50,441 bases of DNA from Methylococcaceae bacterium (lineage in GTDB: Bacteria > Pseudomonadota > Gammaproteobacteria > Methylococcales > Methylomonadaceae). A program made the position numbers and the translations under genes. Of this stretch, positions 4,624 to 26,610 are shown piece after piece (the stretch's first letter is position 1; every line of letters starts with the position of its first letter). The notes beneath the pieces were generated by a model. That model saw nothing but the letters and a program-made list of their open reading frames with translations. It did not search any database and was not told the origin of the DNA. Location of the stretch: NCBI GenBank assembly GCA_947506155.1, contig CANNNV010000001.1, forward strand, positions 1 through 50,441, given 5' to 3'.

Positions 4624-7600
4624 ATGCTTAAAGATAAAGATAAAGACACGTCTCGCGCCGGATCTTCAGACACGCATCTATTGATCGGCTCTTATGCAGA
4701 GTTGCTGCAAATTATTGGGCTGACGGGTGCCTATTTTATAACCGGAACATTAGGTATTTTTTTGGCTATTCCTCCCGGTTATGCGACGGCTATCTGGCCG
4801 CCCTCTGGTATCGCATTAGCAGGTATTTTAATTTATGGCTACCGTGTCTGGCCCGGCATACTGCTGGGTTCTTTTCTGGTTAATGGCGTGGTCCCGGGAT
4901 TAACCGGCTTCGTCTTTGAAAGCCTTCCGTCTTTATTAATTGGGCTGGTGATTAGCCTCGGGGCCAGTTTACAAGCACTTATCGGGGCTTATTGGGTCAG
5001 GCGTTATGCCGGATTTCCGAATGCGCTTAAACGTGAAAAAGAAGTCTTGTTGTTCCTGTTATATGGCGGACTGTTAAGTGCGCTGGTTAATTCGACGCTG
5101 TCGGTGTCCACATTGGTAGTCATGGGACGGATACCTACAGCAAATTTCCTAAGTAATTGGGGAACTTGGTGGGCGGGGGATGTGTTAGGGGTGTTTATTT
5201 TTACCCCACTGGTTTTGATCTGGATGCTCCAGACTCATGATGTTTGGAAAAATAGACGGTTAGCAATAACGTTGCCGACCTTGTTGATGTTTACGTTGAC
5301 TACCAGCGCGGTTTTTTATGAGGAAAAGTCAAGCTATCAGCGAATAAAACTTGATTTTGATCAACGAGCTGTGGAATTAAAAACAGCCTTGGAAACTTCG
5401 GTTGTGCGCCATACCAATGTGCTACGATTTATTGGCGGTTTATATGCAAGTTCGACCTTAGTAACTAGGCAAGAGTTTCGAATTTTTGTGACCCAATCAT
5501 TGGGCGATTTTCACGGCATACAGGCGCTGGAATGGAGTCCACTTATTCAAGCCTCTGAACGGGAGGCATTCGAACAAGGATTTCAGCAGGACGGCTATCC
5601 AAATTTTCAGATAACCGAACGGGACGATACAGTTAAAACCATGGTGCGTGCCAAAAATAGGCCTAAATATGTCCCCATCACTTTTCTTGAACCCTATGAA
5701 GGTAATGAAAAAGCCCTAGGTTATGATTTTTTGTCCAGTGAAGAACGACAACAGGCTTTAGATCGAGCAACCGATACCGATGATCTTGCTATAACTGCCC
5801 GGGTTGTGTTGGTTCAGGAAAAAGAAAGCCAACAGGGACTGGTTGCGTTTTTGCCTATTTATCGTAACGATCTTCCTCATCAAACATTGGAACAGCGACG
5901 CCATGCCATTTCCGGTTATGCGGTTGGTATATTTAGAGTCGGTGATGTGGTAACCAATGCTCTCAACGGCCTGAATACCCAGGGTTTGTCTTATCGGCTT
6001 ATTGACCAGAGTGCGCCAGCAGCAGAACAGTTACTGTTTTTCAATACTGTGATTGACCCGCTACCCCTAATAATTCAAGAAAAAAGCTTGTTTAGTGCTA
6101 AAAAATCGCTAACAAGTCACTTAGTATTTCCAATCGGAGGTCGAGTTTGGCGACTTGAGGTGGCGCCTACTGAAGGTTATTTCTCAGCTAATGCGTGGCT
6201 AATTTTGTTGGCAGGGCTAGTGTTGACTAGCTTGGTAGAACTGGTTGCACTGGTGGCATCGGGTCGAGCGCGTATGCTCCAGCAATTGGTTGGCGAGCGT
6301 ACTGCCGAACTGGAGCGACAATATGGAATATATTGCTCTGTTATTCAAAATACCGGTGAAGGTGTCTGGCGGGTGGGTGGTGAAGGACAATTGCTGGAAG
6401 TTAATACCGCTTATCTTAATTTGACTGGGTATTCTAAAGCAGAATTGCTTGGGATGCAGGTCACCGATCTGGAGACTGAAAATGCAGCATCTCAGCTGCT
6501 CAATATAATCGATTGCACAAAGATCAATAAATTTGAAACCAAGCATTGTTGCAAAGATGGCCGGGTGCTGAATATTGAAATAAATAAGTTTTTTACAAAA
6601 GAAAATGACGGTGGATTTGTCGCTTTTATTAAAGATATTACGGCACAAAAACAGGTAGAAAATGAGAAAGATGCCGCTCATGTGCGTCTTGAATTGATAT
6701 TAAACTCCACCGGTGAAGGCATTTATGGTATCGGCCTGGATGGCGTGTGTATATTTGCCAATCGTGCCGCCATAACTATGTTGGGTTACGCTACGCCAGA
6801 GGATATTTTAGGTGAAAATAATCATCAGCTGTTTCATTATGCTCATGCAGATGGTTCAGCCTATGAACTCAATGAATGTCCTATCTATAACGCACTAAGA
6901 GGCCATCCATCGACAACCGTGGACTCGGAAGTTTTTTGGCGTAAAGATGGCACTAGCATTTCTATTCAATACCAATCTCATCCCATTAAAATAGGCGATC
7001 AAATTTTTGGTTGTGTAGTAAATTTTACCGATATTACGGAACGCAAGCAAAACGAGGCTATTGTCTTGTTGGCTAAAGATAGAGCTGAAGATTTGGCAAG
7101 ATCAAAATCAGAATTTCTCGCCAATATGTCGCATGAAATTCGTACCCCAATGAATGCAATCATCGGCCTTTCTCAGTTGTTACTGAACAAAAATATTTCT
7201 TTTGAAGTTCGGGATTATCTGGAAAAAATTTACTGTTGTTCTAATAGTTTGTTAAGTATTCTCAACGATATTCTCGATTTTTCTAAGTTGGAAGCCGGAC
7301 GATTAACAATTGAGTTCGCCGTGTTTGATCTTGATACTCTATTGAGTAATCTAAGTAACTTGTTTGCGGTTCATGCCGAGGAGAAACACTTGGCTTTCAA
7401 CATAGAGGTTAAGTCTGATGTTCCCAGGAACTTAGTTGGCGATACTTCTAGGCTGCAACAGGTTTTGATTAACCTGCTGGGTAACGCGATCAAGTTTACC
7501 GAGCAAGGCTCAGTCACTCTGACCATCAGTACTAAACAAATCGATCAGACTCAAGTTAGATTAATATTTTGTGTTACCGATACCGGTATTGGCATGTCGG

Positions 7601-18823: not shown

Positions 18824-19461
18824 AAAACACGATAAAAGTCATATTAGTCGATGACCATGCCGTAGTGCGCGCGGGCTTCAGGATGTTGTTGTCTACGGTA
18901 GCCGATATTGAAGTGATCGCCGAAGCCGATCGCGGCGAAGCGGCCTGCCAGTTGTATCTGGAGCAACAGCCGGACGTAATGGTGCTGGATTTATCGATGC
19001 CTGGTATCGGCGGACTGGAAAGCATACGCCGAATCTGCGGCCGCGACGCTGCTGCCAGAATATTAGTATTCAGTGTGCATGATGAAAAAGTTTATGTGGA
19101 CAGAGCCATGCAGGCTGGTGCAAAAGGCTATATTACCAAGAATAGCGCCCCTGGCATCCTTGTTACCGCAATACAGAAAATAGCTGCCGGCGAGATTTAT
19201 ATCGAACGGGGCTTAACAAAACAGGGCTTCCAAAGCAGCGAGACCGATTATCAAGGCCTTATAGAATCGCTGTCCGCCAGAGAGTTCGATATATTTTTGC
19301 TGTTGGCAAAGGGTTTGACCGCGCATAAAATCGCCAACGAACTTTGTCTAAGTTATAAAACCGTCGCCAATTACGGCACGCAAATAAAAAGCAAGCTTAA
19401 GGTATCATCTAGCGCTGAACTGGCACATATCGCGCTGGCGCTGGGGGTGATGAAAAATTAA
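18820..19461 (+). CDS. NarL/LuxR family response regulator (MoxX/MxcE-like)
   Basis: 'LVDDHAVVRAGF', 'LDLSMPG', LuxR HTH 'LSAREFDIF.LLAKG...IANELCLSYKTV'. ATGA overlap with the kinase. Confidence 0.88.
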   Translation: MKNTIKVILVDDHAVVRAGFRMLLSTVADIEVIAEADRGEAACQLYLEQQPDVMVLDLSMPGIGGLESIRRICGRDAAARILVFSVHDEKVYVDRAMQAGAKGYITKNSAPGILVTAIQKIAAGEIYIERGLTKQGFQSSETDYQGLIESLSAREFDIFLLLAKGLTAHKIANELCLSYKTVANYGTQIKSKLKVSSSAELAHIALALGVMKN

Positions 19462-19628
19462 TTTACCTTCCGTTTGGCCGTCATAATTGGCTTTTGGATG
19501 CAACTCTCGGTAGAATTTGAATTAGCTTGGCTATTAAAAAAAATACAAATTAAAATATCTGACGCAAAGAGTCAGCCCATTGCGACAGCATCGTGGCTAT
19601 TTCGATAGTCCAAAACCGGAAATTTAAA

Positions 19629-19853
19629 ATGCACACCCTCACACGTATAGAAACGGTTGATCAGAGCGGGTTTATACACCTTCAACTCGAAAAGTCGGCA
19701 GGCACTAAAGTACGGATTATCATCGAAGATCTTGGCCCAGATCAGACGGTGACAGCCGCTGAAAACTTGGCCTTGGCCAGACTGCAGGAACAGAGCGGTT
19801 TTGTCCAACATGTTCTAGGCTCGGCTGCGGAGGATGTCTGGAATGACTTGTGA
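19629..19853 (+). CDS. Putative antitoxin (74 aa; acidic 'EDVWNDL' C-terminus)
   Basis: Small ORF overlapping the start of a PemK/MazF-like domain. The C-terminal 'AAEDVWNDL' resembles the 'EDxxWxDL' tail of DUF2281-type partners of PemK-like toxins. ATG 19629 preferred over GTG 19593. Confidence 0.7.
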
Positions 19854-21450
19854 CATAAAAGCGGGCAGCATCTACAAGATGTCGTTTCCATTTACCGATT
19901 TTACCCAAGTCAAAGCACGCCCGGCGTTGGCCTTGACCGATAGCGATGTTTACGGCGATGCACGGTTTGTTTTTATTACAGCCACAGCGCCAGATGCCTC
20001 TGAACAAGCCATTACGCTTGAGCAGGACGATTTTTCCGGCACACCGTTACCGCTGCAATGCTATCTTCGTCTGGATAAATCCGTGCTTCTTCATCAGTCC
20101 CTGGTGATCAAACCGTGGGCAAGTCTCACCGATACAGCGATGGCCAGAGTATACCGGGCGATCATTGCGGATGACGTGACCGGCTTCGATAGATTTGGCA
20201 ATACCCGGCAAAACTTCATCCCTGGCCAAAGCGTGATTCCCCCTTCGGGCAAGGTCATCGGCGTAGCAGAACGGCAACTGATGGTCGAAGCCTCGCTAGA
20301 CGGCTGGCTGACTACTGGCCGCTTCAATACTGAATTTGAAAAAAAGCTGGCGGCTTTCATCGGCGTCAAGCACTTGATCACCGTCAACTCGGGGTCTTCA
20401 GCCAACTTGGTTGCGTTTAGCACGTTGACATCTCCCAAGCTGGGCGACCGCGCTATCAAGCCGGGCGATGAAGTCATCGGTGTCGCCGCAGGCTTTCCAA
20501 CTACGGTTAATCCCATTCTTCAATTTGGCGCAGTGCCGGTATTTGTGGATGTGGACCCTAGAACACACAATATCGACGCCAGCAAGATAGAAGCTGCGAT
20601 TGGACCCAAAACCAAAGCCATTATGCTGGCCCATTCGCTGGGCAACCCGTTCAACCTTGATGTGGTTACGGCGCTGTGCGAAAAATACAAGCTCTGGTTA
20701 GTGGAAGATTGCTGCGACGCCTTGGGTACCACGTATCGCGGCAAGATGGTCGGCACTTTTGGCGACATAGGCACCTTAAGTTTTTACCCTGCCCATCACA
20801 TTACCATGGGGGAGGGCGGTGCGGTATTTACCAACGATAAGAAACTCAAAAAGATAGCCGAGAGCTTCAGGGACTGGGGCAGGGATTGTTTTTGTCCGCC
20901 GGGAAAAGACAATTCCTGCGGCAAACGCTTTTGCTGGAAGCTGGGCGAACTGCCTAAAGGCTATGACCACAAGTACACCTACAGTCACCTCGGCTACAAC
21001 CTCAAAATTACTGACATGCAGGCGGCCTGTGGCGTGGCCCAGCTGGACAAGGCCGCGCAGTTCATTCAGGCTCGCAAGGACAACTTTGCTTTTCTAAAAG
21101 AACGTTTAAAAAGCTGCGAAGAATTTTTAACACTGCCCGAAGCGACCGAACATTCAGACCCGTCCTGGTTTGGCTTTCCGATCACGGTAAAGGAAAACAG
21201 CCCTGTTACACGTTTGGATTTACTGACTTATTTGGATCAACACAAAATCGGCTCGCGCCTATTGTTCGCCGGCAACCTGACCCGTCAGCCTTACATGATC
21301 GGCGCTAACTACCGCATCAGCGGTGATTTGACCCATACGGATAATGTAATGAACAACACTTTCTGGATAGGTGTGCAGCCGGCGTTAACCCAGGAGATGC
21401 TGGAATTTGCGGCTGGCAAGATTGAAAGCTATCTTGGTATTAACTCCTGA
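19843..21450 (+). CDS. rfbH: Fusion of PemK/MazF-like toxin domain and CDP-4-keto-6-deoxy-D-glucose 3-dehydrase RfbH/DdhC
   Basis: First ~110 aa '[24 protein letters not shown]...FVFITA...[10 protein letters not shown]' is PemK-like. Remainder has '[13 protein letters not shown]', '[12 protein letters not shown]', 'NSGSSANL', 'EDCCDALG', '[14 protein letters not shown]', 'RDWGRDCFC...C...C', '[15 protein letters not shown]'. No internal stop. GGAGG at 19829-19833 favours ATG 19843. Confidence 0.9.
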
Positions 21451-21462
21451 GCGGTACTGGTA

Positions 21463-22284
21463 ATGACTACCCCGAGCAGACTCTTTGACCCTAAAATGCT
21501 ACGCAAAACCGTTTTGGACATGGCTTATGCCGGCTCAACCGTTCATATCGGCTGTGCATTTTCGATTATTGAGCTGCTGGCCGTGTTGTACCGAAATCAT
21601 TTGCGCTATCCCGACAACGATCCATTTGCCGAGAGCCGTGATTACTTCATCCTCAGCAAAGGTCATGGGGTCATGGCTCAGTATGCCTGCCTGCGCGAAT
21701 TAGGTTGGCTTAAAGATGAGGCTTTCTCTGGTTATTTTGCCGATGGCAGTGATTTAAAAGGCTTATCTGATTCTCGCGTCCCAGGTTTGGAAGTAACTTC
21801 GGGTTCCTTGGGTCATGGTTATTCAGTGGGTGTTGGCATGGCGCTGGGGGCAAAGCTACGGGATACTAATCAAAAAACCTATGCCTTGGTTGGCGATGGT
21901 GAAATCAATGAAGGCCCGATTTGGGAGGGTGCTCTTTTTGCCGCACACCATCAGCTTAAAAACTTCATGGTGATTGTTGATGAAAACGGCTTTCAGGCCA
22001 TGGGTAGCACTGAAGAGGTGCTTAAACTGGGCTCAATACAGGCTAAATTTGAAAGCTTCGGTTTTGAAGCTGTAACCATTGATGGTCATGATCAAGCGGC
22101 CATTGACGGCGCTATCACCCAGCTTTGGGCCAGTGCTTTGACCTCACCGAAAGCACTGATCGCCAAAACAGTCAAAGGCAAAGGCGTGCCCTTTATGGAA
22201 AACAACAATATATGGCATTATACGCGACTTGATTCCGAAACTTACGCACAAGCCTTGACGGTCGTTGCCGGATGTGTGCAATGA
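21463..22284 (+). CDS. Transketolase N-terminal (ThDP-binding) subunit
   Basis: 'HIGCAFS', 'RDYFILSKGH', 'GSLGHG', 'GDGEINEG', 'TVKGKGVPFME...WH'. Confidence 0.9.
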   Translation: MTTPSRLFDPKMLRKTVLDMAYAGSTVHIGCAFSIIELLAVLYRNHLRYPDNDPFAESRDYFILSKGHGVMAQYACLRELGWLKDEAFSGYFADGSDLKGLSDSRVPGLEVTSGSLGHGYSVGVGMALGAKLRDTNQKTYALVGDGEINEGPIWEGALFAAHHQLKNFMVIVDENGFQAMGSTEEVLKLGSIQAKFESFGFEAVTIDGHDQAAIDGAITQLWASALTSPKALIAKTVKGKGVPFMENNNIWHYTRLDSETYAQALTVVAGCVQ

Positions 22285-23198
22285 GAGCGGCTTTTTCAGA
22301 AGCATTGGTTCGCCTTGCCAAGGCTGACCCCACTGTTTTGCTGCTGACGGGTGATCATGGTTACGCCTTGTTTGATGATTTTCGCAGAGCATGTCCTGCG
22401 CAATACATTAATGCTGGGATTGCTGAACAAAACATGGTGGGCATGGCGGCGGGTTTAGCGAGGGTTGGTTTCAGACCTTTCGTTTATGGTTTGGCGGCGT
22501 TCATCCCTGTGCGCGTAGTCGAGCAGATAAAGCTGGATGTAGCTCATGACCAGTTGCCGGTTATTTTTATTGGTGATGGCGCTGGGTTTGTCTATAGCCA
22601 CCTTGGTACCAGCCATCAATCGACCGAAGATATTGCCTGCACTCGAGCAATACCCAATTTATCGGTCTATTCTCCGGCAGACCGGTTTGAACTGACCGCA
22701 TGTATGGAAATGGCTTACCACTCGAAATCTGCTGTTTATTTGCGCATGGGAAAATCCGATCGCGGCGACGTTCATGTTGCCGTGCCGCAAGTAACAGCGG
22801 GGAGTTTATTGCAGGCCAAGTCTGGAAAAGCTAACGATATCGCTTTCATTGCTACCGGAGCCTTGGTACGTACAGCTCTTGATATTGCCGCAGACTCTTA
22901 TCCCGACGCGACCGTTTGGAGTGCTCCTTTTATCAAACCGCTGGATAATGAGCAAGTTACGGCTATCTGTAAACAGCATCGGGGCATTGTTGTGCTTGAA
23001 GAGCATTCCGTATTGGGCGGCCTAGGTTCTGCGATCGCCGAAATTGCGTCTGAATTTGCGCCGGTGCGGATATTGAGGATTGGCGTTAATGATCGCTACT
23101 CCGAGCACTGCGGCACTTACGAATATTTACTGAAAGAGCACGGTTTGGATCGCTTGACCATTGAGCTGAGAGTTCATGACTTCCTCACCGCGAATTAA
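22281..23198 (+). CDS. Transketolase C-terminal subunit
   Basis: 'NAGIAEQNMVGMAAGLA', 'GTSHQSTED', 'VYLRMGK', 'EEHSVLGGLGS'. ATGA overlap at 22281. Confidence 0.9.
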   Translation: MRAAFSEALVRLAKADPTVLLLTGDHGYALFDDFRRACPAQYINAGIAEQNMVGMAAGLARVGFRPFVYGLAAFIPVRVVEQIKLDVAHDQLPVIFIGDGAGFVYSHLGTSHQSTEDIACTRAIPNLSVYSPADRFELTACMEMAYHSKSAVYLRMGKSDRGDVHVAVPQVTAGSLLQAKSGKANDIAFIATGALVRTALDIAADSYPDATVWSAPFIKPLDNEQVTAICKQHRGIVVLEEHSVLGGLGSAIAEIASEFAPVRILRIGVNDRYSEHCGTYEYLLKEHGLDRLTIELRVHDFLTAN

Positions 23199-24633
23199 GC
23201 CATTCGTTATGCCAATACACCCTTTAAGCTCAGCCCCTGACGCAGATGACTATTTCCGTAACCTAATTCAACAGGGCGAGAGCGCTCGAGTCGAATTTAA
23301 AACCAGTTTTCAGAAAGAGCTTATTGAAACATTGGTTGCTTTCGCCAATTCCAAAGGTGGCGTGGTGTTGGTCGGGGTAAGCGATGCAGGTCAAATCACG
23401 GGTGTTGATATTAAAGCGGAAACTCTGCAAGGTTGGGTGAACCAATGCAAGCAGAATACTACTCCCAGCGTTATTCCTGATATTGAAGTTATCGTGCTTG
23501 ACGGTAAAACAGTGGCGATTATCAGTGTAGATGAATATCCAATTAAACCTGTAGCGTGCAAAGGCCGCTACTTTAAGCGCATCGGCAATGCGAATCATCA
23601 AATGTCGCCAACGGAAATCTCCGATGCGCACATCAAGCTGATCAACTCAAGTTGGGATTACCACCCTGATCCTGTTCATGGAATCGACAGCATCTCTCAC
23701 ACTAAGGTTCAATCCTTTGCTGCTGCGCTTTCGCTTAAAGCCTCTTTTTCGACGGTGCTCGAAAAGTTTGAACTCATCAAGGATGGTCACCCCACTTTCG
23801 GTTGTCATTTGTTATTTTCAAAAAATGATGTGTTGCTCAGCACCATTGAAGCGGGGCGGTTTGCAACGCAAACTGTCATCAAAGATAGCATAACCAGTAA
23901 AGATTCATTGATCGAACAAGTTACACGGATTATGGATTTTATCCTCAAGCACACAAACAAAGCCTATATCATTACCGGCAATCCAAAAAGAGAAGAGCGT
24001 TGGGATTATCCTATGGATGCCATTCGTGAAATAGTGATTAATATGATTGTCCACCGAGACTATCGCAGCGCCAATGATTCAACCATTAAGATTTTTGACG
24101 AACGCATTGAGTTTTTTAACCCCGGCGCTCTGCTTGAAGACTTGACGGTTGAAAAGATAAAATCGGGCAACTACAAATCCCATTTGCGTAACAAGCAGAT
24201 CGCTTCCATTTTTAAAGAGCTTGATCTGATAGAGAAGTATGGCAGTGGCGTGCGCCGGGCAATTGAAACCTTTGTAGCGTATGGCTTGCCTGAGCCGGAG
24301 TACGAAGCAACGCAGGGTGGAATGGCCGTAACCGTTTTCAAAAAACCATATAATAATGGTCAAGATAACCTTATCGAATCAAATGGCGGTGTAAGTGGCG
24401 GTGTAAGTGGCGGTGTAAGTGGCGGTGTAAGTGGCGGTGTAACCGAACTACTCCTTTATATACAATTACACCCAGGTCAACGAGCCAGTGACATTGCTAA
24501 AGGGCTTAATTTACCCCTACGGACTATTGAACGTTGGCTTAAGAAACTTAAAGAAACTAAAGTCATTGAATTTCGTGGTGCTTCAAAAACGGGCGGCTAT
24601 TTTGCGACAACTAAAGTAGAGACATCAAAATAA
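23176..24633 (+). CDS. Schlafen/AlbA_2 domain + HATPase_c_4 (RecG C-terminal-like) + C-terminal winged HTH protein
   Basis: 'GESARVEFK...LVAFANSKGGVVLVGVSD.G.ITG' (AlbA_2); 'YPMDAIREIVINMIVHRDY', 'IEFFNPG', 'RNKQIA.IF...IEKYGSGV'; HTH 'IAKGLNLPLRTIERWLKKL...GASKTGGY'. Alternative start 23209. Confidence 0.85.
   Translation: MTSSPRIKPFVMPIHPLSSAPDADDYFRNLIQQGESARVEFKTSFQKELIETLVAFANSKGGVVLVGVSDAGQITGVDIKAETLQGWVNQCKQNTTPSVIPDIEVIVLDGKTVAIISVDEYPIKPVACKGRYFKRIGNANHQMSPTEISDAHIKLINSSWDYHPDPVHGIDSISHTKVQSFAAALSLKASFSTVLEKFELIKDGHPTFGCHLLFSKNDVLLSTIEAGRFATQTVIKDSITSKDSLIEQVTRIMDFILKHTNKAYIITGNPKREERWDYPMDAIREIVINMIVHRDYRSANDSTIKIFDERIEFFNPGALLEDLTVEKIKSGNYKSHLRNKQIASIFKELDLIEKYGSGVRRAIETFVAYGLPEPEYEATQGGMAVTVFKKPYNNGQDNLIESNGGVSGGVSGGVSGGVSGGVTELLLYIQLHPGQRASDIAKGLNLPLRTIERWLKKLKETKVIEFRGASKTGGYFATTKVETSK
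24385..24442 (+). repeat. In-frame 12-bp tandem repeat (GGCGGTGTAAGT) x ~4.8 encoding GGVS
   Basis: Four perfect units plus 10 bp, in the linker before the HTH. Confidence 0.95.
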
Positions 24634-25677: not shown

Positions 25678-26610
25678 ATGAAATTTCTCGATATAAAAAC
25701 AGATTTTGCTTTTAAAAAAGTTTTTGGCAGTGATGAGTCAAAAGATCTGCTGATCAGCTTTTTAAATTCAGTAATTGAGTTTGATAACCGGCAAACAATA
25801 ACCGATTTAACCATTGTTGACCCTTACAGCATTCCTTTATTGAAAGGCATGAAAGACACTTATGTCGATGTAAAAGCAGAACTGAGTGATAGCACTCGCG
25901 TCATTATAGAAATGCAAGTCCTGAACCATGAAGGTCTGGAAAAAAGAATCCTCTACAATGCCGCTAAAAACTATTCTGTTCAGTTAAAAAAAGGGGATGC
26001 TTACCACTTACTTAACCCCGTTATTGCCTTAACCATCACCGATTTTACCTTGTTTAAAAACAGTGATGAACTCATTAACCGGTTTAAATTACTCGAAAAA
26101 AAGCGTTTCATTGAATACAGCGACGACATAGAACTGATTTTTATCGAACTGCCAAAATTCAATAAAATCGAAGGAGAACTGATCAGCATTCAGGATAAAT
26201 GGCTGTATTTTATTAAAAATGCCGGCAGCCTGGATTACATCCCTAAAAATCTAAATCAAGAACTGGAAAAAGCCTTTAATATCGCCAACGAAGCAAATCT
26301 TAGCGAAGAAGAACTGGATCTTCAGCATAAAAAGAGAGATTGGATTTATATTCAAAAAAGTTCAATCGACTTGGCCACAAAAACAGGGTTGCAACAAGGA
26401 TTAGAGCAAGGATTAGAGCAAGGATTAGAGCAAGGATTAGAGCAAGGATTAGAGCAAGGATTAGAGCAAGGATTAGAGCAAGGCGAATGGAAGGCGAAAA
26501 TGAAAATAATAGAAAATGCCGCACGAATAGGCTTGCCCATGCAGACTATTATTGAACTTACAGGACTTGATGAAGAAAAAGTCCTGTCATTGTTGCCGAA
26601 AAATAAATGA
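25678..26610 (+). CDS. Rpn family PD-(D/E)XK nuclease (PDDEXK_2 / putative transposase)
   Basis: 'FLDIKTDFAFKKVFG', 'LISFLN', 'DVKA...IIEMQ', 'KRILYN', 'FIELPKF', 'DKWLYF', GLEQ repeats and C-terminal small HTH. Confidence 0.88.
   Translation: MKFLDIKTDFAFKKVFGSDESKDLLISFLNSVIEFDNRQTITDLTIVDPYSIPLLKGMKDTYVDVKAELSDSTRVIIEMQVLNHEGLEKRILYNAAKNYSVQLKKGDAYHLLNPVIALTITDFTLFKNSDELINRFKLLEKKRFIEYSDDIELIFIELPKFNKIEGELISIQDKWLYFIKNAGSLDYIPKNLNQELEKAFNIANEANLSEEELDLQHKKRDWIYIQKSSIDLATKTGLQQGLEQGLEQGLEQGLEQGLEQGLEQGLEQGEWKAKMKIIENAARIGLPMQTIIELTGLDEEKVLSLLPKNK
26395..26483 (+). repeat. In-frame 12-bp tandem repeat (CAAGGATTAGAG) x7 + 5 bp encoding GLEQ
   Basis: Seven perfect units read directly. Confidence 0.95.

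Follow-up and report, generated by a model that had tools for sequence, protein, structure and literature searches.

In the window, a 50,441-nucleotide stretch of a Methylococcaceae bacterium genome (assembly GCA_947506155.1, contig CANNNV010000001.1), a PemK/MazF-fold domain is joined in frame to the O-antigen enzyme RfbH, behind a small overlapping antitoxin-like gene. The fusion is real, and we conclude that the pair is probably a type II toxin-antitoxin (TA) system with an unusual lifestyle, in which the toxin is tethered to an enzyme and alleles are swapped. Its best explanation, to which comparison of sequences gives a somewhat better than even chance, is an addiction cassette that is tethered to the enzyme and spreads through recombination events with their anchor in the 5' end of rfbH.

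The fusion protein and its junction

The open reading frame runs uninterrupted from 19834 to 21450 (+ strand), with no stop codon across the PemK/RfbH junction. ATG 19843, rather than 19834, is the likely start, because its anti-Shine-Dalgarno (anti-SD) pairing is the stronger (-9.5 vs -3.4 kcal/mol), because the database copy of the fusion has the 535 residues that this start gives, and because the resulting antitoxin/toxin overlap of 11 nt recurs in relatives. The fusion gene is thus placed at 19843..21450 (+; 535 aa). In agreement with the continuous reading, contigs from the DNA runs X3, X5, X10 and X14 and from the RNA-library run X16 span the junction without an indel. Four independent public runs give junction-bridging contigs, and a single contig of X10, 2270 nt long, extends from the upstream regulator across the junction. 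RNA-library contigs of X16 and X18 span 19646-20214; we do not take them as proof of expression, since they come from a single study, with identical ends and without a silent control. One contig of run X14 carries a 32-letter insertion at window 19461-19466, just past the regulator stop codon.

Could the fusion be an artefact of assembly or annotation, or could RfbH be made separately from an internal start? The first is contradicted by the bridging of the junction in five runs and by the recovery of 64 distinct fused proteins, some of them from single-contig genomes. The second finds some encouragement in a Met codon at the junction, ATG 20140, where the preliminary description of this DNA had seen neither a Met nor an SD sequence. 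The absence of an SD stands (pairing of -0.2 kcal/mol), that of a Met does not, and this Met is not conserved. Only 13 of the 64 fusions have any start at the junction whose anti-SD pairing reaches -4 kcal/mol, vs 78% of the fusion starts, and no internal start is conserved. We rejected both possibilities, which we regard as extremely unlikely. The preliminary description also had the last helix of the toxin replace the N-terminal helix of RfbH. The two helices appear merged instead, since AF2 predicts a single helix at aa 97-119 (20131..20199, +) and the RfbH first-helix pattern R..I...V..Y/F...F, common to 42 unfused RfbH, is retained in the fusions.

The N-terminal domain (aa 1-110; 19843..20172, +) was assigned by profile, AF2/Foldseek and alignment. 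Against Pfam PemK (PF02452) it scores E=1.1e-4 and 22.8 bits, for a curated cut-off of 23.1 that seven of nine other intact fused domains scanned do pass. A profile built from 44 fused domains matches MazF structures (best E=6.5e-6), and the Foldseek matches listed for the AF2 model of the domain (pLDDT 86) include MazF chains at TM ~0.7; the predicted fold is the MazF beta-barrel with a C-terminal helix. Arg26 (19918-19920, +) and Thr46 (19978-19980, +) align with the MazF catalytic pair, in the RP and IT motifs of S. aureus MazF; the accessible part of PMC7354611 gives the MazF catalytic residues as Arg25 and Thr48. At position 73 the window toxin has Cys where most homologues have Ser. The domain is the sole PemK match in the source genome.

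The C-terminal 430 residues are RfbH (NCBIfam NF011936, E=1e-220, 732.7 bits vs a cut-off of 423), and the E1 dehydrase 3bcx is the top match both by sequence and by fold (TM 0.95 by target). Within the RfbH/E1 core (20239..21450, +), defined by the 3bcx/3bb8 alignment and by residues invariant in alignment A2, the catalytic His318 (20794, +) sits opposite the residue that is mutated to Lys in 3bb8 (H220K). Cys349, Cys351, Cys359 and His376 (+), which presumably include the exact ligands of the [2Fe-2S] cluster, are invariant in A2. E1 is described, in the available text of PMC8987622, as having a His in place of the PLP Lys and a Cys-rich [2Fe-2S] motif. Each of the 63 full-length fusions retains all three RfbH motifs, and by these motifs the RfbH part would be an intact enzyme. 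Both halves of the reading that the preliminary description gave of this frame, a PemK/MazF-like N-terminus with its Arg and Thr and an intact RfbH with its His and Cys cluster, are therefore upheld.

Distribution and conservation of the pair

In the family to which the window belongs, 59 of 346 genomes have RfbH, with 62 matches in all. Fused matches number 35 (34 that are complete or reach a contig edge with most of the toxin present, and G143, which is split where a contig ends) and unfused ones 23 (21 read, two judged by frame length); the others comprise one fusion with a frameshift in RfbH (G149), one antitoxin-RfbH (G317) and two cut by contig ends. The nearest named relatives among the matches listed are Methylobacter proteins (~75% over the toxin domain). 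Beyond the family, a scan of contigs gave 376 loci, the best 80 of which include fusions in Competibacteraceae, Chromatiaceae, Comamonadaceae and Rhodocyclaceae and in five further phyla: Nitrospirota, Chloroflexota, Chlorobiota, Campylobacterota and Neomarinimicrobiota (MAG). Cultured strains with the fusion among these best 80 are Limnohabitans sp. DCL3, Rhodoferax antarcticus and two Thiorhodococcus isolates. The architecture, sought in independent genomes, is thus widespread, and many of its carriers are bacteria of freshwater and sediment. Its distribution is patchy: among 400 genomes drawn evenly from the phylum, 39 have RfbH (33 read, six judged by frame length), none has an intact fusion, and five, all of one family, have a decayed PemK-like domain. 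In the ESM Atlas, PemK stands beside DegT in 41% of a 530-aa cluster and in 25% of a 798-aa cluster. Named members, as listed, are called RfbH or dehydrase only, with the PemK part unmentioned, so that a common architecture has gone unrecognised under the name RfbH.

Several observations concern the edges of this survey. The 798-aa RfbH cluster has 56 members, most commonly from Verrucomicrobiota, and another RfbH cluster is 75% viral. The DCL3 fusion belongs to a 90% cluster with 309 members. Most of those listed have 450 aa, and the three that were checked are unfused. Long open frames in G607, G408, G401, G669, G459, G554 and G507 proved not to be fusions and were counted as unfused.

The antitoxin-like gene (type A, 74 aa; 19629..19853, +), which overlaps the toxin start by 11 nt, encodes a protein with a beta-rich N-terminal part and the C-terminal motif GF..L....EDVWNDL. 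It belongs to no Pfam, NCBIfam or PADLOC family, and its profile finds nothing real in the PDB; the nearest named cluster in the ESM Atlas, DUF2281 at 0.79, is a lead only. The overlapping antitoxin-like gene of the preliminary description proves to be a regular companion of the fusion: an intact partner gene overlaps the fusion start by 4-26 nt in 57 of 59 intact fusions. The two exceptions are L075, at a contig edge, and G243, in which the toxin is intact and the antitoxin has a nonsense codon ahead of the conserved C-terminal motif (one MAG; an assembly error is possible). Antitoxins of this family occur in 41 of the 346 family genomes, almost always at the rfbH locus. A small, overlapping, co-inherited upstream gene is what a type II TA system would have, and the proposal that a TA pair is hard-wired to RfbH gains support from these comparisons. 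Two loci have unusual antitoxins. At L179 (G149; 4660-6493, +) a chimeric-looking antitoxin, with a type A-like N-terminus and a type B-like acidic C-terminus, stands before a further toxin variant. At L225 (G317; 4679-5761, +) the toxin is deleted and the N-terminal half of the antitoxin is in frame with the first helix of RfbH.

The MazF motif is present in 59 of the 64 distinct fused proteins, with the Arg in 59 of 59 and Thr/Ser in 59 of 59. Five decayed PemK-like domains (hhalign probability of PemK likeness 97.3), carried on RfbH in family f55 and away from rfbG (L203, L204, L206, L207 and L210), are all without the catalytic Arg and without an antitoxin; belonging to one family, they are kin and may go back to one event. 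Median dN/dS within groups is 0.09-0.19 for the toxin, 0.10-0.21 for the antitoxin and 0.04-0.07 for the RfbH core, and 0.37-0.50 for the decayed domains (medians of pairs, which are non-independent, with saturated pairs dropped). This pattern of conservation and purifying selection is what an active, neutralised toxin would leave, and from it we infer that the PemK domain is likely to be an active RNase restrained by its partner.

The same domain might instead be harmless, a dimerisation or stability module for RfbH with the partner as its structural companion. Such a role would accommodate the five decayed domains kept on RfbH without a partner, the nonsense codon in the G243 antitoxin and the confident AF2 model of the whole fusion chain (pTM 0.86). 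It is at odds with the catalytic Arg, which is invariant exactly where the partner is retained, with the unfused RfbH that are common at the tips of the same, fused clades, and with G317, which lost the toxin and fused half of the antitoxin to RfbH. We hold a harmless module to be very improbable as the general explanation.

Exchange of cassettes between rfbH alleles

The fused toxins form three clades, A, B (with the decayed domains beside it) and C+D, and the antitoxin tree requires three changes for the four toxin types A-D, which is the minimum. A single origin of the fused toxin is not rejected (AU p=0.45, on 97 rows from which context-less P rows, the five decayed domains, two long-branch and ten near-duplicate sequences were omitted), and so repeated independent capture is not shown. 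Six 'standalone' toxin representatives within the fused clades are without genomic context and look truncated. The RfbH bodies tell a different history. On the RfbH tree of 54 family rows, the AU test rejects one clade for carriers of A (p=4e-48), of B (3e-6) and of C+D (2e-36); on a tree of 112 rows the fused/unfused state changes 23 times; and near-identical RfbH bodies bear a toxin of type A, B, C or none. These results argue that the toxin-antitoxin unit is repeatedly exchanged between rfbH alleles, whatever the ancestry of the RfbH.

The limits of the exchanged segment can be seen in the window itself. Compared with G030, the RfbH core is 97% identical, the toxin 19% and the antitoxin 25%; compared with G009, the toxin is 75% identical and the core only 70%. 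DNA identity to G030 begins at 20239, and identity to G009 drops ~90 nt further on, which puts the exchange points within the first ~30 codons of the RfbH core. The conserved 5' core bounded by these breakpoints (PPSGK...GWLTTGRF; 20239..20330, +) is the putative recombination anchor.

Exchange has left relics. An antitoxin of another type lies upstream of the current pair in 9 of 64 fused-locus regions, intact in two and broken or partial in the rest: B before A in G033 and G008, C before A in G119 and L057, D before A in G123, intact B before C in G030 and G108, A before D in G323, and remnants of both A and B before C in G134. Among 42 unfused regions there is one such case, G140, with an intact C antitoxin before an unfused rfbH. 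After the old antitoxin there remain only 35-115 nt, with the opening 6-7 codons of the old toxin in clear cases, and a search for displaced toxins across 107 regions gave no toxin-like stretch scoring above 28 bits. The TA pair itself stays intact despite deletion (G008) or frameshift (G149) of RfbH. At L222 (G008; 5437-6893, +) an rfbG remnant, a broken type B antitoxin and an intact type A pair are followed by an rfbH that has lost ~300 codons.

These loci bear on two further functions that the preliminary description had proposed, both of which couple the pair to regulation: either RfbH would control the RNase through its dimerisation, cofactor or substrate state, or the sugar operon would be autoregulated by the TA complex. 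A link of this kind would suit the finding that any recognisable second domain in proteins of >124 aa among the best 150 profile matches is RfbH (save one tandem PemK repeat), together with the fixed register of the junction and the place of the pair in the source genome, where it comes first in the operon, after a two-component regulator and a gap of 167 nt. MazF is a dimer. So is E1, according to the accessible part of PMC8987622. However, unrelated toxin types, or none, sit on near-identical RfbH bodies, and the pair persists on the dead RfbH of G008 and G149; for these reasons the sensor reading is weakened. As for autoregulation, 39 of 64 fusions have rfbG as their immediate upstream neighbour, mostly no more than 40 nt away, so an operator would have little room; because the pair is usually placed within the operon, immediately after rfbG, such control is unlikely as a general rule. 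Promoter-like sites upstream (5, vs 2.2+-1.5 in shuffles) are not above chance. We consider regulatory coupling in either form improbable. The claim that the pair is the first unit of the operon is right for the source genome and fails elsewhere; this position is a local rearrangement peculiar to the source genome, since the pair there follows the two-component regulator and rfbF-rfbG are on another contig (G000:C107). On that contig (L180; 8081-9942, -) rfbF-rfbG are directly followed by F-type ATP synthase-like genes, recognised by eye.

The addiction reading and its context

Addiction of the cell to the locus, the remaining function suggested in the preliminary description, is the option that the retained antitoxins, the stranded old antitoxins and the swapping of cassettes best support. 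Antitoxin and fusion would be made together by translational coupling, and fusion to rfbH would supply an operon promoter and a conserved right-hand recombination arm in an often-exchanged locus. Exchanges could have two arms (39 of 64 fusions have rfbG directly upstream) or a single one, the left joint then being illegitimate; the latter kind of event is known in transformable bacteria (PMC6382021, from the part available) and may act here. Once a cassette had been swapped out, its long-lived fusion protein would persist beyond the antitoxin and cleave RNA. Recombinants sparing the old antitoxin gene would therefore survive best, the spared gene decaying later, and cells that replaced the cassette without its antitoxin would be arrested. 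For the host, retention of the 3,6-dideoxyhexose step would be a by-product. Roles of type II TA systems in addiction and competition are discussed in the accessible portions of PMC12548467 and PMC4826407. To a fuller picture we give a little under an even chance: selfish TA cassettes without a mobile element, having grafted the toxin on the N-terminal helix of a host O-antigen enzyme, would pass from one rfbH allele to another and from phylum to phylum through recombination with its anchor in rfbH, displacing rivals and taxing serotype switching, with the toxin tamed to a passive domain in one lineage.

Some findings count against addiction. The 39 of 64 fusions directly behind rfbG have no stranded antitoxin and 23 of 62 family rfbH are unfused; the cassette is therefore gained and lost cleanly at times, unless its relics erode quickly. 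The stranding of antitoxins could be partly geometry, as an exchange anchored in rfbH removes the toxin first. Since the five decayed domains persist without a partner, a non-toxic role is conceivable. The nonsense codon of G243, the Cys73 of the window toxin and its score below the Pfam cut-off (22.8 bits) are further points on this side.

Defence by abortive infection offers another use for the same parts: phage shut-off of host expression would free the RNase, and the tie to a receptor operon and the cycling of types would reflect an arms race. It is compatible with addiction and would produce the same conservation signals (Arg/Thr, partner retention, dN/dS). The sugar loci are rich in TA- and defence-like genes, with AlbA_2 in the window and MNT/HepT, Phd-PIN, YafQ, HipA, AIPR and putAbiC genes in the loci of relatives, and the available text of PMC12548467 treats TA systems as phage defence. 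Against this, PADLOC has no match for the toxin, the antitoxin or the fusion, defence would not need the fusion, and the stranding of old antitoxins but never of old toxins is left unexplained. We judge abortive infection unlikely.

Comparison with known systems places the pair. With MazEF/PemIK type II TA systems (PF02452; S. aureus MazF 4mzm/4of1, B. subtilis EndoA 4mdx) it shares the fold, the Arg/Thr positions and a small overlapping upstream partner, whereas the toxin here is the N-terminal domain of a 535-aa biosynthetic enzyme, the partner has no Pfam family, and the antitoxin family is found almost only at rfbH (346 genomes). With the RfbH/DdhC/AscC E1 dehydrases (NF011936; 3bcx) it shares the full core, the His for Lys and the Cys/His cluster motif, but it adds a 100-aa RNase-fold extension ignored by database names. 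The nearest precedent we found is PhoAT-PhoH2 of mycobacteria, as presented in the accessible part of PMC4826407: a PIN toxin domain fused to the PhoH helicase with the antitoxin upstream, that is, the same two-gene layout with an N-terminal toxin on a larger enzyme. In that system PhoH complements the RNase; in ours the enzyme, RfbH, serves a sugar pathway and is unrelated, and several types of toxin are swapped onto it. The inferred penalty for loss is that of plasmid or island TA addiction and anti-addiction (PMC12548467, in part), and stranded antitoxins are a feature shared with orphan antitoxins (PMC7192599, in part). In contrast to plasmid or island systems, no mobile element was matched: the type A domain plus junction has no match in 72,556 plasmids and 50,697 phages, and the cassette appears to travel by recombination into a host gene. 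We found no description of a PemK-RfbH fusion in titles and abstract openings of open-access papers, and the available portions of PMC3493377, PMC2701414, PMC7285500 and PMC3879964 do not contain it.

Four apparently live toxin types, stranded antitoxins, loss of the toxin and a tamed domain make up a natural series that would allow a direct test of the debated addiction by chromosomal TA systems. Exchange of O-antigen is the main escape from phage receptors. If addiction is true, cells replacing this part of the O-antigen locus would be punished, which suggests a brake on such exchange in abundant lake methanotrophs and in Comamonadaceae.

The surroundings of the pair in the window have features of their own. 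Upstream, the search for a known RNA or riboswitch gave only one chance Rfam match (E=0.58). A single query for the E3 reductase brought up no clear candidate, its best match being at 23% identity, in a genome that is 90% complete. Downstream, in the same sugar operon and outside the cassette, Pfam identifies split transketolase-like N and C genes (21463..23198, +), which suggest that a branched dideoxy sugar may be made; split transketolase genes also come directly after rfbH in the G119 and G123 loci. Further along, a gene with Schlafen AlbA_2, HATPase_c_4 and HTH domains and GGVS repeats is inserted into the operon at 23176-24633 (+), and AlbA_2 fragments recur at the G030 and G140 loci. 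An Rpn/PDDEXK_2 gene with QGLE repeats lies inside the operon at 25678-26610 (+) and has a close copy in the G008 locus.
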